The notes below the pieces were generated by a model, which had not been told where the DNA came from, made no database searches, and worked only from the letters and a program-made list of their open reading frames with translations. 64,000 nucleotides of DNA, from the NCBI GenBank assembly GCA_048882325.1, contig JBHLRS010000005.1, positions 32,001 through 96,000 on the forward strand, given 5' to 3'. This document shows, piece after piece, positions 5,668 through 35,959 of the stretch; position 1 is the first letter of the stretch, and each line of letters opens with the position of its first letter. The stretch comes from Candidatus Thorarchaeota archaeon (GTDB lineage Archaea; Asgardarchaeota; Thorarchaeia; Thorarchaeales; Thorarchaeaceae). The position numbers were made by a program, and so were the translations under genes.

Positions 5668-6750
5668 GTGAACAAGATGGAAAAGGTTCCGCCAAGACTC
5701 CTGTCATATCATTATGTCCCAGCGGGTTTCGAAATAGTGATCAATGACATGTCAATGCATACAGATAGAGGAGGAGGGATCTGGAATCTCTGGTGGAACG
5801 TCCAAGTATCAGATGATCCTGGGACATGGGATAATGAGATTCGTGCATTGAACACAATGCAGAAAGAATCAGGACACCTCACTAAGAATCATCGATATGT
5901 AAGGATACACATAGCTGAATGGTGCAGAAATGATGACACATTCCCAACCAGCCTTGATATCCTCTGTGCTGAGATTGGTAATGAGAAGATTACTACACCA
6001 TGGACGTTAGGGTGTGAGGGAAGAGGTCTTAGGGATTCATTGGGGATTCACGCCTCGCCCGATGATAGACTTGAACAAAGGGTGTTTTTGTTTAACTCAT
6101 ATCAGATTGCATTCAAGGCTTGGATCAATCAGAGAGAACCTGAGACCCTGCTTGAGGCAAAGGTTCGAAGATATCTTGGCGAGGTGACACGAGAGAAGAT
6201 CGCACTTGTGGATTTGCTTAGACGCCAGCTTATTCCTACAGTTTCTTCAACTGCATCATTGAAGGAAATCTATAAAGAAAAAACTCAAGGAATTTCAGCT
6301 GAGTCCTTGTCTCAGTGTCTTGATTGTGGTAACTGCACAGACATTGAGAGTGAGCGAATCTATCCAGAGTGCTCTTGTTGTGAACGATTCTATATTGACT
6401 CACTTCTTCTATTTCAGAGATTTATTGAACCAAATGAGATATACAGGGAGATGTTTCGCTTTCATCAGGAATGTCTTCTTGGATACATGTATGCTGTAAA
6501 TGCTTGGCTGATAGATGAAGAACCGACGCTTTTGACTGATGTTGTTACTCCAGTCTTTCTCAACCAGCAACTAGCTGAGCAAATTCCAAAACAAGTCAAG
6601 AGACTCCTGGGCATCCGAACCCCTGTTAAGGAATGGTTAGCTGGATGTTTACTCAAGACACTAAGAGGAAACAGAAGTTGGAAAACTAACCATCAAATGA
6701 TAGACAATTATCCTGAAGCCAGCTCCTGGCTTTCATTCATAAGAGTCTAA
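5668..6750 (+). CDS. Hypothetical protein with a Cys cluster
   Basis: 360-aa ORF; CLDCGNC...CSCC; no family recognised. Confidence 0.7.
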   Translation: MNKMEKVPPRLLSYHYVPAGFEIVINDMSMHTDRGGGIWNLWWNVQVSDDPGTWDNEIRALNTMQKESGHLTKNHRYVRIHIAEWCRNDDTFPTSLDILCAEIGNEKITTPWTLGCEGRGLRDSLGIHASPDDRLEQRVFLFNSYQIAFKAWINQREPETLLEAKVRRYLGEVTREKIALVDLLRRQLIPTVSSTASLKEIYKEKTQGISAESLSQCLDCGNCTDIESERIYPECSCCERFYIDSLLLFQRFIEPNEIYREMFRFHQECLLGYMYAVNAWLIDEEPTLLTDVVTPVFLNQQLAEQIPKQVKRLLGIRTPVKEWLAGCLLKTLRGNRSWKTNHQMIDNYPEASSWLSFIRV

Positions 6751-25310: not shown

Positions 25311-25472
25311 CTTGTTCCTGAAATCTTGACCCTTGTACTGCTTTGGATCCTTGCCAAAGGTCTCTTTACAATAAGGATTGCAGGAATAGTACGTCTTCCC
25401 CTCGTAACCACTAACGAGTATGGCTGTGGCCACATCCTCGTTGCAGATTGGGTCAACCGCAACTTCAGGAAT
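25290..25472 (-). pseudogene. Cryptic second YHS domain in frame after the copA TAG stop
   Basis: Translation past TAG gives IPEVAVDPICNEDVATAILVSGYEGKTYYSCNPYCKETFGKDPKQYK..., a copy of the copA terminal YHS domain; no obvious own start codon. Confidence 0.75.
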
Positions 25473-28160
25473 CTAGGATTCAGTTGCATTTACTTCCTTG
25501 TATTGCTCAGGATTGGCTTCGAAGTTATCTTTGCAGTTTGGATTACAGAAGTAATACCGTTTGCCTTCATAGTCACTATAGAGGTCAGCAGTAGCGATGT
25601 CGACTTCCATTTTGCAGATAGGATCGACTGCAACAGCTCCTTCCTGATAAGCAGCAGGTGGGACTCCACTCAAGGGTGCAGTTGTCTGTTCAGGTGTAAA
25701 TCGGTTCAAAGTCAATGCATTGGTAACTACACTTACACTTGATAACGCCATGGCAAGGCCAGCGAACTCAGGACGCAGTATTAGACCGATTGATGGAAAT
25801 AGAATTCCTGCCGCAATTGGTAGAAGCGCAATGTTGTAGATTAGCGCCCAGAAGAATCCTTGTCGAATCTTTGACATTGTCCGACTGCCTAACTGGATTC
25901 CTGTAACCACATCAAGGAGGTCATCTTTGACCAGGACAATGTCACCAGTTTCAACTGAAACGTCTGTTCCTGACCCTAGCGCAATTCCAACATCTGCCTG
26001 AGCCAATGCAACAGCATCATTTACGCCATCTCCGGCCATGGCAACAGTCTTTCCTCGACTCTGCAATTCCTTGATTTTCTCAGCTTTATCAGCTGGTAGA
26101 ACTTCACCGAGAACATTATTAATTCCGACAACATCTGCTATTGCATGCGCTGTTTCTTCCTTGTCACCTGTTATCATCCAGACTTCTATGCCCATCTTCT
26201 GTAAGCTTTGAACAGCTTGGACAGAGGTCTCCTTCAGCTTGTCTGCAATTGCTATGAGTGCAAGGGGATTTCCATTGATAGCTGCAAAGACCGTTGTCTT
26301 TCCTTTCTCCTGCAACATTGTACCCTGTGCTTCTGCATTTGAGATATCAATTGAATTCTCACTCATGAATTTGTCATTACCAACAAGAATCTGATGACCT
26401 TCAACAATCGCTTTTACTCCTTTTCCAGTTACAGACTCAAAATCGGTGCTGGATGGAATATCAATGTCAAGATTCTCGGTATATTGAACAATTGCCTCGG
26501 CTAAGGGATGCTCACTGTTCTTTTCAACAGAGGAGATAAGACGCAAAGCTTCTCCGTCACTGAAATCGCCATACATGATCATATCAGTAACCGTCGGCTT
26601 GCCAATTGTGAGGGTTCCAGTCTTGTCGAATACAATTGCATCAACTGTGGGGATAACTTCCAGACCTTCTCCTGCCTTTATCAGGATCCCGTGCTGTGCT
26701 CCTTTTCCGATGCCGACCATGATTGCGGTGGGGGTTGCTAAGCCCAGTGCACAGGGACACGCGGCGACCAGCACTGCAATACTAAAGGTCAAAGACTGAG
26801 TGAATTCAACCGGTAATCCTGTGATTGGTGAAACAATACCCAAAGCAGGGGAAACCCAGAACCAAAATATGTAGGTCGAGAGGGCCAAAATAATGACCAC
26901 AGGTGTGAATCTATTTGCAATCGCATCAGCCTTGCGCTGAATCGGAGGCTTGTTTGTTTGGGCTTCCTCAACAAGTTTGACAATCTGTGACAATACGGTA
27001 TCCTTGCCGACCTTTGTAGCTCTTATCTTGAGTACTCCGTTCTTATTGATTGTAGCACCCACTACGTTGTCGCCTACCTTTTTCTTGACTGGAAGTGGTT
27101 CCCCAGTAATCATCGATTCGTCGACGCTTGATTGGCCTTCTATGACTTCACCGTCCACAGGGACTTTGTCTCCAGGTTTGATGAGCACAATGTCTTCAAC
27201 TTCAACATCCTCTATTGGCAGAAGCAGTTCTTCTCCATCTCGTACGACAGTTGCTACTTTTGCTTGCAGGTCCATCAGACTACGCATTGCTTTGGAGGTC
27301 CGCCCTTTTGCGACTGCTTCAAGCGTCCTTCCAAGAAGAATGAAGCTTAGAAGAAGTACAGCTGAATCGTAGAATGGGGTGTATATACTCCATTCGGGCA
27401 AAAATGTTGCTGCTACAGAATACAAGTATGCAGCGCTTGTCCCCAGGATAATTAAAGTGTCCATGTTTGTTGTAAAGTGACGAGCTGCTTTTAGAGCAGA
27501 CTTATAGAATGGGTATCCTGCAATAAACTGCACAGGTGTTGCAAGAATGAACATAATGTATTTCCGTACTTCCTCAGATGGCACTAAGGTCGAAAACACA
27601 CCAAAGTGGATCAGTACAACAGGGATTGTCAACAAGACTGAAAACGCTAAAAGTCGAGAATAATATCGAATTTCATTCTCTCTGGCGAGAGATTCTCGAT
27701 CGGCATCAATACCCTCTGCTTCTGAGATTGTTACTCCAATGCTCTGAAGCGACTTCTTCACAATCTTATATGTGATCACGTCATCATCATATTCTATCAA
27801 TACGCGGTTCGATTCTTCAATTGAGTGAACAGATATGACCCCATCAATAGATTCCAAAGTCTTCAGGATTCTGTTCCAATCCAAAGGTGATTCGGATTCA
27901 TCTAGAGTGATTGACATGGATGGTCGTCGTGCACGGTATCCCGTATCCTCGATAGCCTTCTCTAGTGTAAATCTATTCACAGAATCAGGTTCGTATTCAA
28001 CTACAGCTTTTTCATCTAGGAGACTGACATTAGCCTTAATTACGCCATCTTGACCGACTAAGGCACCTTCTATCTTTGCCACACAAGATGCGCAATGCAT
28101 CCCTTCAATACGCAGTGACATTCTGGATGCGGTAACCCTTTGTTCAGATTTCTGACTCAT
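25473..28160 (-). CDS. copA: Copper-translocating P1B-type ATPase with N-terminal HMA and C-terminal YHS domains
   Basis: GMHCASC, TGE, CPC, DKTGT, SEHPL, GDGVND, YN and MALSS (Cu+ type) motifs; C-terminal DPIC...YYFCNPNC. Confidence 0.96.
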
Positions 28161-28202
28161 CTCTTTTCACCGTTTTTGAAATTCGAAATAATGTTTTTTA
28201 CG

Positions 28203-28222
28203 ATATATCGTACTCGATATAT
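28203..28222. promoter_or_regulatory. Palindromic operator ATATATC-N6-GATATAT upstream of copA
   Basis: ATATATC gtactc GATATAT, overlapping a minus-strand TTATATA box. Confidence 0.75.
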
Positions 28223-28267
28223 AAGATTTGTGATTGGACCGGCTTCAATCGGAAACCATATTGTCAA

Positions 28268-28783
28268 CTATAAACTCTGTTTGAACGCTTTAGCACAATG
28301 AACACAACAAAAAGTCATGGTTGTACCATTGACTTCCTCATGGTGCGCACCTTCGAAAACCCTAGCTCCACAACTTGCACATGCCGTAAGACTGGATCCG
28401 AGAGCAGATACTGTGATCGCAGCAAAACGTTTGAATAACTGGTCACTAAATCGCTTTCCCTTCCTCGTCATTGAGTACACGATCCTGCGTTTCTTCCCTA
28501 TGTCTTCCTGCTTCTGGGTGACTAGCTTCTTTTCTTCGAGTTCCTGCAAAAATGGATAGAGTGTTCCTGGACTTAATTTTTTCCCAGTTCGGTTTTCATA
28601 TCTTTTCATAAGACCATAACCATGCAATGGTTTTTCGTTCAACATCAATAAGATATAGAAATGCGAGAAATCAGCCAGTATTTCTTGTATGTCAGGATTG
28701 GGTGTTTTCATGTCTTGAATTGCATTTTCCTTTGTCATTTTTCGTGTCATCCCAATATAGCTCGAATGTTGTGAGTCACACAA
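28268..28783 (-). CDS. PadR-family regulator with C-terminal TRASH-type metal-binding domain
   Basis: ILLML...HGYGL...SPGTLYPFL..LEEKKLV...RRIVYSMT.KG (PadR); CASCG...FCCVHC (TRASH). Confidence 0.9.
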   Translation of the reverse strand: MCDSQHSSYIGMTRKMTKENAIQDMKTPNPDIQEILADFSHFYILLMLNEKPLHGYGLMKRYENRTGKKLSPGTLYPFLQELEEKKLVTQKQEDIGKKRRIVYSMTRKGKRFSDQLFKRFAAITVSALGSSLTACASCGARVFEGAHHEEVNGTTMTFCCVHCAKAFKQSL

Positions 28784-28927
28784 ATAAGGAATCGAGGAGT
28801 TTCCAGGTGTGACATATAGCCCATTCCGCGAAGCAGTTTCCTATAATAGTTGCTTGTTGACTAGATTCTTCCCAATCACTCTGAGAAATGGACTACACTA
28901 AAAGAGATTTAGATTGTATCAATATAA

Positions 28928-28961
28928 ATGTATCTTATGGGATATATCCATAGGGATAATT
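28928..28961. promoter_or_regulatory. Two overlapping operator copies upstream of the PadR-TRASH gene
   Basis: ATGTATC ttatgg GATATAT (28928-28947) and ATATATC catagg GATAATT (28942-28961). Confidence 0.65.
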
Positions 28962-29157
28962 GATACGATACTCTTCGGAACCCAAGAGATTCATGGCATC
29001 TATAAGACGCTCCCTATCGATACTATCGACCTCGATTTCAACAACAACCTTGACGTTTTGAAGACTTACTTCAGCGCCTTTTATTCATTCCTAATAAAGA
29101 TGGGCATTCTTAATTCTGTCAGATTAGTCAATATAGAGCAGCAGACAGAAGGTTTAT

Positions 29158-29220
29158 ATATATCGAGTAGGATATATCTGATTAGATATTATTGTTTTCG
29201 ATATATCTCAATAGAAATAT
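29158..29220. promoter_or_regulatory. Three operator copies upstream of the YHS-Lon-NIF3 operon
   Basis: ATATATC gagtag GATATAT (29158-29177), ATATATC tgatta GATATTA (29172-29191), ATATATC tcaata GAAATAT (29201-29220); TTTATATA box at 29153-29160. Confidence 0.72.
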
Positions 29221-29239
29221 ATAGACAGAGGCAAAGGAA

Positions 29240-29395
29240 ATGGCTAGAGATCCAATATGTGGAATGATAGTAGATGAGAACACAACCAAGCTAAAGTCGG
29301 TTCACAAAGGAGAAACTTACTACTTTTGTATGATGAGATGCAAGAAAGCCTTTGACAGTGATCCAGATCGCTTTGCCATCGAATCGACACATTAA
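29240..29395 (+). CDS. YHS/TRASH domain metallochaperone-like protein (51 aa, not in ORF track)
   Basis: Manual translation MARDPICGMIVDENTTKLKSVHKGETYYFCMMRCKKAFDSDPDRFAIESTH. Confidence 0.9.
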   Translation: MARDPICGMIVDENTTKLKSVHKGETYYFCMMRCKKAFDSDPDRFAIESTH

Positions 29396-29416
29396 TGATA
29401 AAACAGGTGCGTATCT

Positions 29417-31870
29417 ATGAAGAAACTGACATCAGGAGAAATCCGGGTTCGTTGTGATGATAGGGAGTTTGCATGCAGAACTAGTGCGGAGCTTTTCCCC
29501 CTAGATAATATCGTTGGGCAGAAGCGTGCTCTTGAATCGTTGCGATTCGGACTAATGATAAAGGACAAAGGATTCAATGTCTACGTTGCTGGTATTCCAG
29601 GAACTGGTCGTACAACTGCAGTTTCAAAATTCCTTCAAAATCTTGCAACAAAAGAATCTAACGCATCAGATTGGTGTTATGTAACCAATTTCGAGGACCA
29701 GTATCACCCACGAGCTCTTGAGCTGCCATCAAGCAGAGGGTTGCAATTAGAGCAGCAAATGGAGAGTTTCATTGAACTTGCTCAAATAACGCTTTCTGAG
29801 ATGCTAGAAAGTGAGGAATATATCATACAGCGAGATGAGCTTTTGAGGATTTTCAAAGACAAACAGCAGGAAATAAGCAATCAAATGGAAGATGAAGCCA
29901 AAAGACACGGGTTTGTATTGCAAGGTTCTAAGACTCGATTACTCCTGCTACCACTAATCAATGGTGAGCCTCTCAATCCTGAAACAGACACTCACCTGCC
30001 CAAGGAAATCCGGGACAAAATCGCAGAAAATCGCAAAGTTGTGGAAAAGCAAATGGGAGTGTTTTTCCGTCAATTACGTCTTATTGAACGTGAACTTCGT
30101 GCTGCTCTTCAGAATAAAGAACGTGATGCTGTGCTTTATGCCCTCTCTCCACTTATTGATGACCTTAAGGAGAAGTTCAGGGATTTGCCAAAGGTTACGC
30201 AATGGTTTCAGGACGTTGCGGAGGATATCACCGAACATCTTCAAGAATTCATCGGACTCTCAGAAATTGATTCATCAGATGAGCTGAATTTATCGCAAAC
30301 GGGATCAATTCTACAGGAAGAATTCACTCATAGATATAAAGTAAATCTGTTTGTTGATAATTTGGGAGCGGATGGCGCTCCTGTTGTTATCCTTGCAAAT
30401 CCTTCTTATAACAATCTATTTGGCATTATTGAGAAAGAACCACGATATGGCGGACTTAGAACAGATTTTTCTATGATTCGCCCAGGGGCCCTTCACAAGG
30501 CAAATGGTGGATATCTAGTGGTTCCTGCAATGGAACTTCTAACTTCTCCACATGTATATCAATCTTTGAAGAGAGCACTTGAACATGGCGAGATAGTCAT
30601 CGAGGAACCTCAGGAATCAGTCAGCTTCTTTACTGTGAAGAGTTTACGTCCTGAACCAATCCCATTGGACCTCCAAGTAATTCTAATTGGTGAGGAAGAG
30701 ATTTACCGAGAGCTATACAATAAGGATCCCGAATTTCGTCAACTTTTCAAGGTAAAGGCAGAATTTGATATTTCGATGGATCGCACACCTGAAAACATCC
30801 ATGTATTCGGCTCGTTCATTTGTATGATTCATACAAAGGAAGGTCTGAGACCTTTGAAAGCGGAAGCTATAGCAGAAGTAATCGATTATAGCTCTCGTCT
30901 AGCAGAAAGTCAAAATAAACTCTCTATAAGATTCGACATAATAACTGACATCATACGCGAAGCAAACTTCTATGCGAGCGAAGAGAAAAGTGTCACGATA
31001 GAAAGAGATCATATCAAAAAAGCCATCCGTCAAAGAATATACCGATTGAATCTTTACTCTGAGAAGGTTCGTGAGCTTATTAAGAAGAATATAATTTTTA
31101 TCGATCTTGATGGGGAAACTGTAGGACAAGTAAATGGACTTTCGGTAGTCTCTCTTGCAGGTCATGCTTTTGGACAAACATCTCGAGTTACAGCTAGTAT
31201 ATCACCTGGACACCAAGTTGTAATAGATATTGAACGTGAATCCAATCTTGGTGGTCCGATTCATACAAAAGGAGTACTCATACTTGGGGGATATCTAGCT
31301 AATCGATATGGAAGAGAAAAACCGCTTAGTCTTTCAGCGCGGGTTGTTTTTGAGCAGAGTTATGGAGGTGTTGAGGGAGATAGTGCAAGTAGCACGGAAC
31401 TGTATGCGATTTTATCTGCTCTTTCAGGTATACCCATTCAACAGAGATTTGCTGTAACTGGCTCTGTCGATCAACATGGAAGAATACAAGCTGTGGGAGG
31501 AATTAATGAAAAGATTGAAGGATTTTACGAACTTTGCAAAGCAAAAGGTTTGACAGGACATCAAGGAGTCTTGATACCGAAAGCCAATATTCAGAATTTA
31601 ATGGTATCAGATGAAGTAGTCGAAGCTGTCAGAGCAGATTCATTCCATATTTATGCAATAGAAAATGTGGACGAAGGCATTGAATTGCTGACGGGTGTAC
31701 CAGCAGGTAGAATTCAAGAGAATGGCAATTATTTGCCAGGATCAATTAATGCAGTGGTGGATGAGTTTCTAGTTCGAATGGCTAGAATTATGGAAAAGTA
31801 TTATTCAACTGAAAATCACAACAAACAAGAAATCTCTACAATACCCCAAGTGACGTCCTCTGGAGTGTGA
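29417..31870 (+). CDS. Lon-family protease, LonC-like (long coiled-coil insertion, no TM)
   Basis: GQKRA, Walker-A-like GIPGTGRT, PGALHKANGGYL, GQVNGL, FEQSYGGVEGDSAS (catalytic Ser), EKIEGF (catalytic Lys). Confidence 0.92.
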   Translation: MKKLTSGEIRVRCDDREFACRTSAELFPLDNIVGQKRALESLRFGLMIKDKGFNVYVAGIPGTGRTTAVSKFLQNLATKESNASDWCYVTNFEDQYHPRALELPSSRGLQLEQQMESFIELAQITLSEMLESEEYIIQRDELLRIFKDKQQEISNQMEDEAKRHGFVLQGSKTRLLLLPLINGEPLNPETDTHLPKEIRDKIAENRKVVEKQMGVFFRQLRLIERELRAALQNKERDAVLYALSPLIDDLKEKFRDLPKVTQWFQDVAEDITEHLQEFIGLSEIDSSDELNLSQTGSILQEEFTHRYKVNLFVDNLGADGAPVVILANPSYNNLFGIIEKEPRYGGLRTDFSMIRPGALHKANGGYLVVPAMELLTSPHVYQSLKRALEHGEIVIEEPQESVSFFTVKSLRPEPIPLDLQVILIGEEEIYRELYNKDPEFRQLFKVKAEFDISMDRTPENIHVFGSFICMIHTKEGLRPLKAEAIAEVIDYSSRLAESQNKLSIRFDIITDIIREANFYASEEKSVTIERDHIKKAIRQRIYRLNLYSEKVRELIKKNIIFIDLDGETVGQVNGLSVVSLAGHAFGQTSRVTASISPGHQVVIDIERESNLGGPIHTKGVLILGGYLANRYGREKPLSLSARVVFEQSYGGVEGDSASSTELYAILSALSGIPIQQRFAVTGSVDQHGRIQAVGGINEKIEGFYELCKAKGLTGHQGVLIPKANIQNLMVSDEVVEAVRADSFHIYAIENVDEGIELLTGVPAGRIQENGNYLPGSINAVVDEFLVRMARIMEKYYSTENHNKQEISTIPQVTSSGV

Positions 31871-32766
31871 TTAGTATGACCAAGCAAAATTACATAAAGA
31901 ATCTGGAGGGATTGACCAAATCTATTTCCTTAAGAACAATAATAGCCCCATTAGAACCTCAGGTAGTAAAGTCAGAAATAGTACAAACTAAGCAATTCAT
32001 AAATTCCGACAGCATCATAGAGTTTCTAGAAAATCGTACATACTTACCTGAGTTTGATTATATTGGTTATGAAGTAAACACTGTTGATCGTATTAACGCA
32101 GTATATTTGATGATAAATCCAGACCCTTTGAATCTTAATTATGTACCAAAAAACAGCCTTGTTATTTGTCATCACAAAATATCTACACACAATAATCGTA
32201 TCTACGAAAAAATGCTTGACCATGCAAGAGATTCAAACTTCAACATTTACAATTTCCATCTTGGGTGGGACATTATGGAAGATGGAATCACAGATTCATT
32301 TCTATTTGACTTTGGGTTAGCTCATCACGATTTCGAAAAAGTTGATCTTACATATCGAGGTCATCTAATTCCTCATCTAGGAGCTATTTTCAAAAAAAGA
32401 TTAACAATGGAGGACATAATCAATAGACTTTACATGATGAATGTCCAGCCATCAATTATCATTAATCCACAATGCAAGGTGTCCAAGATTGGATATATAC
32501 CTGGTGGTGGTTTTGTTGATGATATGGTCCTAGAGATGGCGGATTTAGGTGTCGATGTTCTCATTTCATCAGACCATAATTGGGTTGTTGAAACTGTTGC
32601 TAGAGAAGTAGGTATGACCCTAATTGAAATTGACCATTATCGCAGTGAACGCCATGGTTTGCGAACAATGAAGACCCTTCTTGAGAACTCATTTTCAAAC
32701 ATATCCATCAATATCCTAGAGAATGTTGATGGAATGAGACGAGCCCCATGCGATTGTAATTCTTGA
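31867..32766 (+). CDS. NIF3/YbgI-like dinuclear metal-binding protein (divergent)
   Basis: ICHH, YNFHLGWD, PGGG, ISSD, IDHYRSE match NIF3 metal ligands; GTGA overlap with the Lon gene. Confidence 0.7.
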   Translation: MISMTKQNYIKNLEGLTKSISLRTIIAPLEPQVVKSEIVQTKQFINSDSIIEFLENRTYLPEFDYIGYEVNTVDRINAVYLMINPDPLNLNYVPKNSLVICHHKISTHNNRIYEKMLDHARDSNFNIYNFHLGWDIMEDGITDSFLFDFGLAHHDFEKVDLTYRGHLIPHLGAIFKKRLTMEDIINRLYMMNVQPSIIINPQCKVSKIGYIPGGGFVDDMVLEMADLGVDVLISSDHNWVVETVAREVGMTLIEIDHYRSERHGLRTMKTLLENSFSNISINILENVDGMRRAPCDCNS

Positions 32767-32861
32767 GGAATGATCATCCAAGAAGAACTCTTGTTGCATA
32801 CTAGCTTAAGCACACCACTTCTATGATCGTTTCTTCAATTTACTCATTTTTAAACCATCTT

Positions 32862-33749
32862 TCATTGAACTCTCCGAGCCCGAACAAGCTCTACATTGAC
32901 AACAATGTGGCCAGGGTTAGAACGTTCTTGAATCCTGGTTTTAATGTAAAAGAGTAAAATCAAAGAGATATATCCAACATATGCAATGACCTCAATGGCT
33001 GAAGGGTTCCCATTGTAACCGAATAGAGCTTTTGCAAGTCCACCAATGAGACCATTCTCATGCAGAAGTGGATAACTGCCATCTGGGAATAATGGAGGAT
33101 TGATGTTCCAAAGTTCACTTGGACCTAATGCCAAGAAACCTATTTCTTGAAGCTCATGAATACCATAAGCAATCATTCCAGCGGCGAATAATACCAAAAG
33201 GATAGAAGTTGAATTGAAGAATGATTTTAGACTGACTCGCAATGAGCCTTGATAAATTCCCAATCCGACAAAGAATGCGAATATTAATCCCAAAGCAGCT
33301 GCAATGAAAGTTGTATATCCTTCTTGAATTGCTAAGGCAACTATGAACAGGACTAACTCGACACCCTCCCGCAAAACAAGAGCAAAAGCAAGAATCGGTA
33401 GACTGAGATTTCCTCCCACAGCCCTCTCCTCAACCGATTGTTTGATTTCAGTGGTTAGGTTTGTACTCGCCTTTCTCATCCAGAATATCATAGATGTCAA
33501 GAGGATCGCAGCAAATAACACAACTGACCCCTCAAAGACCTCCAGCATTGGTCCTTCAAATGACCCCCATATCACCACCAGCACTGAAGCTAATCCAATA
33601 CTCGTGATTATTGCAAGTAATGTGCCGCTGATGATACTGCGATTCAATTTCTCTCTGCCAGTCTTGCGTAGATAAGAGAACATTATTGCAATGACAAGGG
33701 CAGCTTCAATACCCTCACGCAATGAAACAATGAATGGTGCAATGACCAT
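32862..33749 (-). CDS. FTR1-family iron/lead permease
   Basis: Two REGxE motifs (REGIE, REGVE), HELQE, 7 TM. Confidence 0.93.
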   Translation of the reverse strand: MVIAPFIVSLREGIEAALVIAIMFSYLRKTGREKLNRSIISGTLLAIITSIGLASVLVVIWGSFEGPMLEVFEGSVVLFAAILLTSMIFWMRKASTNLTTEIKQSVEERAVGGNLSLPILAFALVLREGVELVLFIVALAIQEGYTTFIAAALGLIFAFFVGLGIYQGSLRVSLKSFFNSTSILLVLFAAGMIAYGIHELQEIGFLALGPSELWNINPPLFPDGSYPLLHENGLIGGLAKALFGYNGNPSAIEVIAYVGYISLILLFYIKTRIQERSNPGHIVVNVELVRARRVQ

Positions 33750-33763
33750 TATAGAATCCCCCC

Positions 33764-33907
33764 ATCATGGATTGATTCGTTTCGTCTAGCAGAGATTTTA
33801 TTCAGATAATGCAACATTACATATTGTCTTTGGTGCTTCCCTGGTCTACGGATAAACAATCTATAAGGTTCATTGATCTCCTCCTTTTGATCCAATACTA
33901 TGCTCAT
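33764..33907 (-). CDS. Possible 47-aa small protein between the ubiquitin-like gene and FTR1
   Basis: ATG 3 nt after the upstream stop; MSIVLDQKEEINEPYRLFIRRPGKHQRQYVMLHYLNKISARRNESIP fills the gap; no motif. Confidence 0.3.
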
Positions 33908-33910
33908 GAT

Positions 33911-34342
33911 TCAACCTCCTCCTATAGCAACCATAAACACAATTGTGTCACCTTCATTGAGTATTCTTTTCATTGATTCTTTAGAATCGAGTTCCATTTT
34001 TAGTTTCCAACCTGTTATGATTATTTTACCATTGACTATGATGATTGTTTCATTACTGAGGATTGGGTTTTTCTTCTCATCTAGATACGCATCCATTGAA
34101 TCACCAAACACACTCATCAGCTGACCAATCAGATCAGTGAGTGAAGTTCCTTCTTGAATTTGAAATTGAAATTTGTTGTAGTTTGATTCTCTAAGTCCCT
34201 TATTCAACAGCTTGATGAAAACTTGAATCACTGAGTTTTCCCTCTTCGACAGTTGTTGCCAAGAAGACAACTTTGACATGTAGGAAATTTCCGAGAGTAT
34301 CATTCTGTAGAATTCCTTCTTTGATATGCATCTCTTAACCAC
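33911..34342 (-). CDS. MoaD/ThiS/SAMP-type ubiquitin-like protein (start possibly GTG at 34231)
   Basis: IIIVNG...LNEGDTIVFMVAIGGG beta-grasp C-terminus with di-glycine. Confidence 0.85.
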   Translation of the reverse strand: MVKRCISKKEFYRMILSEISYMSKLSSWQQLSKRENSVIQVFIKLLNKGLRESNYNKFQFQIQEGTSLTDLIGQLMSVFGDSMDAYLDEKKNPILSNETIIIVNGKIIITGWKLKMELDSKESMKRILNEGDTIVFMVAIGGG

Positions 34343-34517
34343 AACAACCTCGTCGGCGCATTGATACTAATCTACGCTGTGAATAGAAATATGGGGAATC
34401 ATCAAACCTTGTTTTGCATGACTGCTTGCAAAAATAGTATCTCTGTCCCATATAATCAGAATAAAATTCTGTTACTTTTTCGTTTACCTCTAATCCACAA
34501 ACTGGATCGTTTACCAT
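34335..34517 (-). CDS. YHS/TRASH domain protein with GCCG tail
   Basis: DPVCGL...YYFCKQSC...F...P; C-terminal RRRGCCG; AGGTGA RBS. Confidence 0.88.
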   Translation of the reverse strand: MVNDPVCGLEVNEKVTEFYSDYMGQRYYFCKQSCKTRFDDSPYFYSQRRLVSMRRRGCCG

Positions 34518-34628
34518 CGTTAAATCACCTTCAGTTCCGGTTTTACGCTTTTGGCTCTAATATTCAAGATGTTGGTGAACGAGTATCTCTATCCAATAGA
34601 CCAATTGTTCACCAAATCTCCAGATTGT

Positions 34629-34717
34629 ATATTACCACAAGGATATATCGGAACTGTATTATTAAAGGCGCTCGGATATATAAATATATCGGTCAAGATA
34701 TATCCATTATGATATAT
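34629..34717. promoter_or_regulatory. Operator cluster upstream of the YHS-Ubl-FTR1 operon
   Basis: ATATATC ggtcaa GATATAT (34684-34703), ATATATC cattat GATATAT (34698-34717); degenerate pair at 34629-34662. Confidence 0.72.
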
Positions 34718-34735
34718 ATTGGTGTTTGCCATTTG

Positions 34736-34771
34736 AAAGAAAAAAGAGAGGAGAAGTGGGAATCTTCTCCT
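34736..34771 (-). terminator. Hairpin plus U-tract downstream of the third YHS gene
   Basis: AGGAGAAG (34749-34756) / CTTCTCCT (34764-34771); the minus strand continues CTCTTTTTTCTTT. Confidence 0.55.
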
Positions 34772-34812
34772 GCCCGCATAAGAATTGTACAGGATTCCTT
34801 AGGCTACTCTTC

Positions 34813-34965
34813 CTATTCTCGAATTCCCACTTCTAAGTTAAATTTCTCTGGATTGGCGTCGAACATCTTTTTATGCTCTTCATTCATAAAATAGTATGTT
34901 TTCCCCTTGTAAACGGATTTGATATGGGGTTTACCCATCATTCCACAAACAGGACATTTTGCCAT
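34813..34965 (-). CDS. YHS/TRASH domain protein, Met/His variant (50 aa)
   Basis: MAKCPVCGMMGKPHIKSVYKGKTYYFMNEEHKKMFDANPEKF...; AGGTGA RBS before the ATG at 34965 (the track ORF over-extends to 35118). Confidence 0.85.
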   Translation of the reverse strand: MAKCPVCGMMGKPHIKSVYKGKTYYFMNEEHKKMFDANPEKFNLEVGIRE

Positions 34966-35078
34966 TTTTGTCACCTTTTTTCCCGATTGTATATTCCTAT
35001 TAGATCGTTCATTTGACTCTCCAGAAACACCCCGAATAAATGGAGAAACGGAGACTCCAATGAAACACTCGATTATAT

Positions 35079-35167
35079 TTATATCCATAGGGATATATCG
35101 AGATTGACCTATAATCACATCATTGTAATATAAATCTATCGCTTTCGATATATCTACGTAGATTTAT
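35079..35167. promoter_or_regulatory. Two pairs of overlapping operator copies upstream of the third YHS gene
   Basis: TTATATC catagg GATATAT (35079-35098), ATATATC gagatt GACCTAT (35093-35112), ATCTATC gctttc GATATAT (35134-35153), ATATATC tacgta GATTTAT (35148-35167). Confidence 0.7.
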
Positions 35168-35272
35168 CAATCAAATTTAAGCAAATAAAATTGCGATGAA
35201 TAGCAGTTTCTGTTCGCCCAGATAATTTAGACTCACCTCTCCGTGAGAATCAGCTGTTGTTTCAGAGTGATA

Positions 35273-35959
35273 TCATCCCATGTAGATGCCTGTTTCTTCG
35301 CCTTTTAGGGCTTCAGTCATCATACGCATGAGTTCATGAAAAGTATCCTGGATGTTCTCTCCAGTCTTTGCGGAGGTCTCTCGAAAGATGGCAGGAACCT
35401 CTAATTTCTTGATGAAGTACTCACAGAAGGCTTGACCCTCTTCAGTTGTGACGAATTTGGACTTGTCATTGCTCTTGCGAAGGTCAATCTTGTTCCCAAT
35501 GATCACGGTTGGTGGTAGTGGACCCATGTTCTTGTATGCCTCGACCAACCACTTACTTGCATTATCGAATGTCTCTCTGTCAATCACTGAATAGACCAGT
35601 AGTATTCCGTTGCATCCACTGTAGTAATGTCCTCTGACCTTCTCGAAGGTCGGTTGACCTGCGAGGTCCCAAATAATGAATTTGACCACATCTTGCTCGA
35701 AGAGCACTCGCTTCGTAGCGAGGTCAACGCCAATTGTTGCAAGATGTCCCTCGATGAAGTCTTCGCCCAAATAGTTGCGGCGTATGCTAGTCTTACCTAC
35801 GGCTCCGTCACCGATCAAAACAGCTTTCATGATTTTGCTGCCATCATCTTGGTCACGCATGGTGTTTTTCTCCTGAAGCACATGTCCGCATTCTCGTGTG
35901 ATGTAGTCAGGTGGCCCTCCCGTGTTACTTGACCACAGAAGAATCACAGCTTTACCCAA
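35273..35959 (-). CDS. Rab-like small GTPase (start probably 35860)
   Basis: GDGAVGKT, TIGVDL, WDLAGQ, NKID, ETSAK. Confidence 0.93.
   Translation of the reverse strand: MGKAVILLWSSNTGGPPDYITRECGHVLQEKNTMRDQDDGSKIMKAVLIGDGAVGKTSIRRNYLGEDFIEGHLATIGVDLATKRVLFEQDVVKFIIWDLAGQPTFEKVRGHYYSGCNGILLVYSVIDRETFDNASKWLVEAYKNMGPLPPTVIIGNKIDLRKSNDKSKFVTTEEGQAFCEYFIKKLEVPAIFRETSAKTGENIQDTFHELMRMMTEALKGEETGIYMG

Follow-up and report, generated by a model that had tools for sequence, protein, structure and literature searches.

To our knowledge, what is known of archaeal copper sensing comes from a few thermophiles and halophiles in culture, and each of these employs Lrp-type CopR/CopT regulators. In Enterococcus hirae and Lactococcus, the cop operon is headed by CopY, a BlaI/MecI-type winged-helix protein with a C-terminal CxCx4CxC motif, whose repressor dimer holds Zn while on DNA and leaves the operator once Cu(I) replaces Zn. 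CopR combines an Lrp/AsnC-type helix-turn-helix with a TRASH domain, and its octamers, Lrp-like in kind, have some 150 bp of DNA wrapped around them (PMC7830388). PadR proteins of subfamily-2 comprise the form of about 110 aa in which dimerisation relies on one C-terminal helix (PMC11566425). In LmrR of Lactococcus lactis, Rv3488 of M. tuberculosis and Ta0346 of Thermoplasma the chain stops after this helix, and the ligands, drugs or phenolic compounds, are taken up where the two subunits meet. A plain PadR of Halobacterium is induced by copper and nickel, and its deletion was without phenotype (PMC6978704). Members of the TRASH/YHS/eL24/MYM superfamily (Ettema et al. 2003; Pfam Ta0938, TRASH_HVO_1752_C and YHS) display the pattern C-x2-C-x20-C-x3-C on two beta-hairpins and a helix. 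No description of a PadR-TRASH fusion was found in the 8.4 million full texts searched (subscription literature lay outside it), and the name Ta0938 occurred there in a phylogenomic list only.

In this study, a gene encoding such a fusion was analyzed in the window, that is, the whole stretch of 64,000 nucleotides of Thorarchaeota DNA under investigation. Like the CopR/CopT proteins of Saccharolobus solfataricus, Pyrococcus furiosus (PF0739), Thermococcus onnurineus (CopR) and Halobacterium (VNG1179C), the product is a small archaeal factor that begins with a winged helix and ends in a TRASH domain; its gene lies beside copA and that of a small TRASH/YHS metal-binding protein, and it presumably responds to copper (PMC7830388, PMC5328820). 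It differs from them in its PadR subfamily-2 module, assigned by HMM and fold and set apart from CopR by the published Lrp/AsnC description of the latter, in an extra invariant Cys (FCCxHC), and in having a discrete 20-bp palindrome as its likely site, probably bound by a dimer, where the CopR octamer wraps DNA; it is also more likely a repressor, whereas CopR activates or acts dually. With LmrR, Rv3488 and Ta0346 it shares the winged helix-turn-helix and the single long C-terminal helix, but a predicted metal domain of 40 aa is appended and its genomic partners are copper genes. The likeness to CopY would lie in the working principle, and the differences in the winged-helix family and the fold of the Cys domain. 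Compared with the TRASH/YHS/eL24/MYM superfamily, whose Cys pattern and predicted fold it displays, it adds an invariant Cys and a His (CC-x-H-C) and the fusion to PadR in a regulator. The protein is very probably an unstudied kind of archaeal TRASH copper regulator, built on a different DNA-binding scaffold.

The maximal open reading frame at 28268..28783 on the minus strand was confirmed and corresponds to 171 aa, the TTG at 28783 being merely the earliest possible start. The true start is probably the ATG at 28738, because databases call the gene there (P0001) and conservation with close relatives begins there; in an alignment of the upstream DNA of the window with that of seven close relatives, protein-level conservation sets in at this ATG. 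Residues are numbered on the resulting 156-aa protein, and the gene and its parts are as follows.

28268..28738, minus strand: padR-TRASH gene, 156 aa from the ATG, stop codon at 28268-28270, product 100% identical to P0001
28448..28654, minus strand: PadR winged helix-turn-helix, residues 29-97 (PF03551, PDB profile matches, AlphaFold2/Foldseek)
28391..28465, minus strand: long C-terminal helix, the dimerisation helix of PadR subfamily-2 type, residues 92-116 (predicted secondary structure)
28271..28390, minus strand: predicted TRASH-fold metal-binding domain, residues 117-156, C120-x2-C123-x20-C144-C145-x-H147-C148

The first-pass annotation had read this gene as a PadR winged helix-turn-helix joined to a TRASH-type Cys domain, which was borne out for PadR by the HMM search and the predicted fold, and for TRASH by the Cys spacing and the predicted fold. 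In the domain scan, PF03551 (PadR) reached 61.1 bits (cut-off 27, E=9.9e-17) over residues 44-112 of the 171-aa frame (Pfam) and was the top match, and no Lrp/AsnC model was present among the 15 Pfam families found at E<=1. Penicillinase_R reached E=0.15 and 12.9 bits, under its cut-off of 22.6, and the Cys motif is not CxCx4CxC. Two TRASH-type models, Ta0938 (25.9 bits) and TRASH_HVO_1752_C (24.1 bits), matched at 133-169 of the 171-aa frame, both just below their 27-bit cut-offs. When 60 diverse relatives, down to 26% identity, were examined, all 60 matched PF03551, and of the two TRASH-type models one matched 34 and the other 39 of them at E<1e-3. The motif itself runs exactly as annotated (CASCG, 18 residues, FCCVHC, with HH in the loop), and C120-x2-C123-x20-C144-x3-C148, which is kept in 59-60 of the 60 relatives, follows the TRASH spacing pattern C-x2-C-x19-22-C-x3-C. 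An hhalign comparison with YHS1, a YHS protein of the window, aligned C123, F143-C144 and C148 with the YHS Cys residues, at a probability of just 9.7%. In databases the regulator is labelled 'PadR family transcriptional regulator' or 'TA0938 family protein'. The annotation had also stated that CopR and CopT pair TRASH with another type of helix-turn-helix, and this is supported by the PadR match and the lack of an Lrp/AsnC match here, set against the published Lrp/AsnC assignment of CopR (PMC7830388).

Structure prediction recovered a PadR subfamily-2 core fold together with an eL24/MYM-like TRASH fold. The AlphaFold2 model, built on 60 homologues (pLDDT 89.8), consists of three helices, a two-stranded wing, helix 92-116, short hairpins and a final helix. 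Over its first 100 residues or so, Foldseek retrieved LmrR, Rv3488 and Ta0346 at target-normalised TM-scores of 0.7-0.85, and alignments spanning about 103 residues of LmrR/Rv3488 are, along with the predicted secondary structure, the basis for helix 92-116. The family profile, searched against PDB sequences, returned PadR proteins only (Ta0346 at 1.5e-13, B. subtilis PadR at 1e-11, Rv3488 and LmrR). The fold search with the whole model likewise gave PadR matches alone, and the TRASH fold became visible after the C-terminal 49 residues were modelled separately (pLDDT 84.8). The Foldseek top 50 for this C-terminal model contained eL24/Rlp24 plus 2das, the 'TRASH domain of ZMYM5', with rmsd of 1.4-2.2 A over 41-42 residues and query-normalised TM-scores of 0.54 for 2das and 0.59-0.68 for the others; with so short a domain, the E-values reach no better than 0.04-0.2. 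Both eL24/Rlp24 and the ZMYM5 TRASH domain are classic structural kin of TRASH.

Among the 60 relatives, C120, C123, F143, C145 and C148 were found in all, C144 in 59 and H147 in 49, and CxxC...FCCxHC was kept in 74 of 75 genomic copies, the exception (L019) having Tyr at the second Cys. The Cys residues of CASCG...FCCVHC thus stood as the conserved site, to which C145 and H147 belong as well, but the HH pair that the first-pass annotation had pointed out did not: H132 is present in 36 of 60 (Tyr in 19) and H133 in 14 of 60, so that the pair is a feature of Thorarchaeota only and was rejected as the ligand set of the family. In many members from outside Thorarchaeota, the stretch C-A-H-C-G-C supplies one more His and brings the Cys to six. 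The conserved set of five Cys plus one His offers one thiol beyond the need of a structural Zn site, and the TRASH domain is a candidate metal site made up of the five Cys and H147.

A total of 105 PadR-TRASH matches were found among 185,579 species genomes, and clustering of the family gave 111 groups at 90% identity and, for full-length proteins at 50%, roughly 90; since the same two-domain architecture recurs to this extent, the fusion is not a chance open reading frame. The best 80 of the 105 come from Asgard archaea (Thor-, Hermod-, Heimdall-, Loki-type (Promethearchaeota), Odin-, Njord- and Hodarchaeota) and from Bathyarchaeia, Hadarchaeota, Nitrososphaerota, Woesearchaeota and Hydrothermarchaeales. 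In the phylum of the window, about 100 of 301 sampled genomes have a full-length copy (117 matches minus 17 that cover the PadR part alone). By tblastn, 62 of the best 80 of 105 loci have a CopA-like ATPase no more than 6 kb away, and in 54 of them the distance is at most 700 bp; the ATPase gene is co-directional and downstream in 23 of these 80 (Thorarchaeota) and divergent in 35. The remaining 18 of the 80 are without a nearby CopA. Some of the copies that lack copA, mainly those of Bathyarchaeia, face a gene resembling FAD-dependent pyridine-nucleotide-disulfide oxidoreductases.

The position directly upstream of copA, noted in the first-pass annotation, was confirmed in the window, where copA follows the regulator on the same strand after a gap of 107 bp, and the linkage is kept across phyla, as the count of 62 in 80 loci indicates. 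HMA, E1-E2 ATPase, HAD and a C-terminal YHS domain were assigned to copA by Pfam, and CPC, YN and MxxSS were read from the translation; these membrane motifs mark Cu(I)/Ag(I) pumps of the P1B-1 type. The copper-related genes around the regulator are as follows.

25473..28160, minus strand: copA, P1B-1 copper ATPase with HMA, CPC, YN, MxxSS and C-terminal YHS, the presumed main target
29240..29395, plus strand: YHS1, 51-aa YHS/TRASH mini-protein, first in a unit that also comprises LonC-like and NIF3-like genes
34335..34517, minus strand: YHS2, 60-aa YHS mini-protein
34813..34965, minus strand: YHS3, 50-aa YHS-like mini-protein

All five YHS domains of the 3.6-Mb genome fall in the window, namely the copA tail, a remnant just past the copA stop and the three mini-proteins. 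The genome contains a single PadR-TRASH gene and ten further PadR paralogues without TRASH. No second TRASH-bearing transcription factor was found in it, a weak match to the TRASH models at C9:94137-94778 being rejected as an MBF1-like zinc-ribbon/HTH protein, and CsoR was looked for in the genome and not detected. Judging from these gene searches, the genome appears to hold no rival candidate copper sensor besides PadR-TRASH.

A palindromic candidate operator was recognized next to the regulator and at several further promoters, at the following places.

28203..28222, no strand assigned: perfect palindrome ATATATCG-N4-CGATATAT, between the regulator stop and the copA start
28928..28961, no strand assigned: pair of overlapping operator-like copies, some 190 bp before the ATG of the regulator and followed by TTTATAT in gene direction
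29158..29220, no strand assigned: operator array upstream of YHS1, in which 29158-29177 is perfect at 14 specified bases and weaker copies lie at 29172 and 29201
34684..34717, no strand assigned: two overlapping perfect operators upstream of YHS2
35079..35167, no strand assigned: two pairs of overlapping operators, four copies in all, in front of YHS3

With up to three mismatches allowed, ATATATCG-N4-CGATATAT occurs ten times in the window, against 0.22 expected, and the palindromes often form overlapping pairs with a 14-bp offset. The pattern ATATATC-N6-GATATAT, searched in the 3.6-Mb genome with up to one mismatch, gave 11 sites, nine of which lie within 28203-35167 and precede five promoters' worth of genes: copA, the regulator, YHS1, YHS2 and YHS3. 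The remaining two, C57:3637 and C57:3651, were rejected as part of a copper regulon; they belong to a separate ATCA-N6-TGAT array in the intergenic region between a PadR paralogue and an aldo-keto reductase, which may be read as the paralogue's own operator. A site with two mismatches at C2:185604, solitary and without a paired second copy, was taken as chance. At copA, the copA-distal arm of the palindrome at 28203..28222 is part of the TATA-like box TTATATAT, and at YHS1 the distal arm belongs in the same manner to a TATA-like box, TTTATATA; at both, the remainder of the site runs downstream. The block at 28928..28961 is conserved among eight aligned relatives. At this promoter, the regulator's own, the TATA-like box comes after the sites, an arrangement that would also fit activation.

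Related loci retain the palindrome in positions that follow the gene arrangement. In loci L001-L013 the spacer between regulator and copA measures 110-140 bp and always contains the palindrome after CTTATATAT, while the flanks diverge. In loci L015-L021 the two genes are 33-76 bp apart and the spacer has no site; perfect sites are located 85-110 bp upstream of the regulator, as predicted from an operon arrangement. A variant, ATATATC-N7-GATATAT, was found beside the orthologous regulator in 14 loci (Bathyarchaeia, Hadarchaeota, Heimdall and others), and another, ATATATAC-N6-GTATATAT, in 20 Loki-type loci, so that about 60 of the 80 loci have the palindrome or a variant of it up to 300 bp upstream or 200 bp downstream of the regulator. 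The predicted recognition helix also varies by group (S[AP]GTLYPFLQ; SPSLVYPFL or SAGQIYPLL; SPTYVYDFLK). That helix and palindrome variant differ together is consistent with co-evolution, though confounded by phylogeny. The operator of B. subtilis PadR is ATGT-N8-ACAT; on that footing, the half-site spacing here, roughly one helical turn, would be of the same order.

Within the genus of the window, the regulator was present in 7 of 25 sampled genomes and a CopA orthologue (61-83% identity) in 26 of 28. The seven regulator-positive congeners have 5-13 operator copies and the 18 negative ones 0-2, a count that in the latter is not above that of a reversed-pattern control. These counts indicate that the presence of the palindrome goes with that of the regulator and not with that of copA, which speaks against a general promoter element. 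In six negative congeners, the roughly 3 kb upstream of copA lacked PadR-TRASH, any YHS gene and the palindrome alike, and a Ras-like GTPase gene immediately precedes copA; the window homologue of this GTPase lies at 35273..35959. Since GTPase and copA are adjacent in these relatives, the stretch 28161-35272 of the window represents a cassette of about 7 kb between them, which contains the regulator, the operators, YHS1-LonC-NIF3, YHS2-Ubl-FTR1 and YHS3. Sites and regulator thus share one cassette, so the association is strong but partly reflects co-inheritance and is no proof of binding.

Observed features are the two-domain architecture, the conservation of the Cys residues, the proximity to copA, and a palindrome that is restricted genome-wide and occurs together with the regulator; that a dimer binds this palindrome, that its ligand is copper and that it represses, not activates, is what we infer. 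We consider it likely that the regulator is a Cu(I)-released homodimeric repressor acting on ATATATC-N6-GATATAT palindromes at copA, at its own gene and at the YHS units. The homodimer would have a PadR subfamily-2 core, formed through helix 92-116 in the manner of LmrR and reading both half-sites, with the TRASH domain joined directly to the end of the dimerisation helix. Without copper, the dimer would occupy the palindromes, which at copA and YHS1 would place it on or against the TATA-like box (an overlap judged from the sequence alone), and would thereby keep TBP, TFB and RNA polymerase off these two promoters; the overlapping sites with their 14-bp offset may admit more than one dimer at a promoter. 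A rise in cytoplasmic Cu(I), or Ag(I), would lead to binding of the metal by the thiolates of C120, C123, C144, C145 and C148, with H147, and metal at the TRASH domain on the end of the dimerisation helix could re-orient the winged helices so that the DNA is released. De-repression of copA, the regulator's own gene and the three units, in each of which a YHS copper-binding mini-protein comes first, would follow. A CopY-like swap of resting Zn for Cu(I), to which the fifth Cys prompts us, is speculation.

The same sensor and operator could also serve a copper-dependent activator or dual regulator, the DNA-bound, Cu(I)-loaded form of which would aid recruitment of TBP/TFB, a mode proposed for CopR of Pyrococcus and Sulfolobus. 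Known TRASH regulators, CopR of Pyrococcus and of Sulfolobus, activate or act dually and remain DNA-bound (PMC7830388), the multi-site arrays with 14-bp offset recall extended CopR footprints, and at the regulator's promoter the sites stand just upstream of the TTTATAT box, which is the position of an activator site. However, the palindrome at copA and YHS1 includes or abuts the TATA-like box and extends downstream, a placement that normally excludes basal factors, and PadR proteins are as a rule ligand-released repressors (PMC11566425). On balance, activation or dual control seems unlikely. It is more improbable still that the TRASH domain holds structural Zn only and that the regulator is metal-independent or senses another signal, such as thiol oxidation or disulfide stress. 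Such a role would accord with the fold, that of eL24/MYM zinc fingers which bind structural Zn, with the Ta0938 family, a Zn-binding protein for which we know of no further role, and with those members that adjoin the gene for a disulfide-oxidoreductase-like FAD protein in place of copA. It fits poorly with a fifth invariant Cys and a conserved His, which exceed the four ligands of Zn, with a steady linkage to Cu(I)-type pumps and YHS copper-binding proteins across many phyla, and with the use of the same domain type as the copper-sensing element of CopR (PMC7830388).

Hardly probable at all is a reading in which the palindromes are recognized by another factor, or are plain TATA-like promoter elements of the cassette, and PadR-TRASH targets something else. 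The half-sites are indeed AT-rich and TATA-like, and the similar ATCA-N6-TGAT array at the promoter of the C57 PadR paralogue means that related specificities exist in the genome. Against this, the cassette has no further conserved transcription-factor gene, the palindrome goes with the regulator and not with copA across congeners, lineages with differing palindromes have orthologous regulators with differing recognition helices, and the rest of the genome is free of the motif beyond the C57 array, hence it is not a general promoter element.

Beyond the repressor model favoured above, a broader picture may tentatively be drawn, though we regard it as rather doubtful as a whole. PadR-TRASH might be the main copper sensor in Asgard archaea, Bathyarchaeia, Hadarchaeota and DPANN, replacing the Lrp-type CopR and working in a way that is not known to have been described for archaea; its operator arms might constitute the TATA box, with direct competition against TBP; a Cu(I) thiolate cluster in the five-Cys/one-His TRASH variant might replace a resting Zn in a convergent, CopY-like manner; and the regulator, operators and accessory genes (YHS, LonC, NIF3, ubiquitin-fold protein and FTR1) might move as a cassette that turns a constitutive copA inducible and enlarges the regulon.

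PadR-TRASH would bring copper sensing to Asgard archaea, about one third of whose sampled genomes have the family, as well as to Bathyarchaeia and other uncultured groups. TRASH would then be a portable metal-sensing module, found attached to winged helices of two or more unrelated families, and the different scaffold with its compact 20-bp candidate operator makes an easily tested sensor-operator pair. The clean predicted regulon of nine sites at five promoters would allow a wider copper-stress response to be read, comprising a LonC protease, NIF3, a ubiquitin-fold protein and an FTR1 permease.

In the six congeners compared (other genomes of the same genus), a Ras-like GTPase gene immediately precedes copA, the gene for the P1B-1 copper ATPase. 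Relative to these genomes, and as judged by sequence comparison, approximately 7 kb of the window is an inserted cassette, the content of which was as follows.

28161-35272: PadR-TRASH (the putative copper regulator gene), all operator sites, YHS1-LonC-NIF3, FTR1-Ubl-YHS2 and YHS3

The copA gene ends at a TAG stop, and the reading frame beyond it encodes another YHS-like segment, the motifs of which (ICNEDV and YYSC) are degraded.

25326-25475 (minus strand): second YHS-like segment, directly 3' of the copA stop and in frame

Among the best 80 of 105 PadR-TRASH loci from species genomes, at least 11 from Thorarchaeota relatives (L004, L005, L008, L010, L011, L015-L017 and L019-L021) carry both YHS domains in a single unbroken ORF, and a decayed remnant was present in L002 as well. 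For the segment behind the TAG, we prefer a sequencing error, or a second domain that is truncated or in decay, to programmed read-through.

The Loki-type CopA proteins encoded beside PadR-TRASH end in a conserved, Cys/His-rich extra tail following one or two YHS domains, with the pattern KLKC-x-ECG ... PMHCG ... LVCWMG-x-CG ... HHG (seen in L056, L058, L062, L065-L067, L069-L072, L075, L077, L079 and L080). A PadR-TRASH/copA locus was also contained in a contig labelled 'Candidatus Nanopelagicaceae bacterium' (L064, DATKTW010000024.1), the upstream palindrome of which is identical to that of the Loki-type loci L063, L066 and L080, and the DNA upstream is closely similar to L066 and L080; this contig is probably archaeal and mis-binned.

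Family members with the following features were found in two sampled genomes of the window's phylum and in one Thorarchaeota genome.

G096, C42:93818-94228: PadR-TRASH match closing a 356-aa open frame
G043, C30:14987-15397: PadR-TRASH match closing a 356-aa open frame
L019 (CP070658.1), 6277-6423: invariant second Cys replaced by Tyr (CASYG)

Because the match ends a 356-aa open frame in both G096 and G043, longer fused forms of PadR-TRASH exist. In the one genome with the CASYG variant, either the sensor has been disabled or the assembly is in error.

A PadR paralogue of 259 aa, with its PadR domain located C-terminally, is encoded on another contig (C57) of the same genome.

C57:2829-4802 (outside the window): divergent pair of the PadR paralogue gene and an aldo-keto reductase gene

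The tandem ATCA-N6-TGAT array between the two genes resembles the predicted copper operator (ATATATC-N6-GATATAT) and is probably the paralogue's own operator.

In four Bathyarchaeia loci (L032, L033, L036 and L040), PadR-TRASH is present with no copA nearby, and a FAD-dependent pyridine-nucleotide-disulfide-oxidoreductase-like gene is divergent from it; in L033, the two ORFs after this gene matched no Pfam family. The oxidoreductase-like neighbour may represent a second target type of PadR-TRASH.
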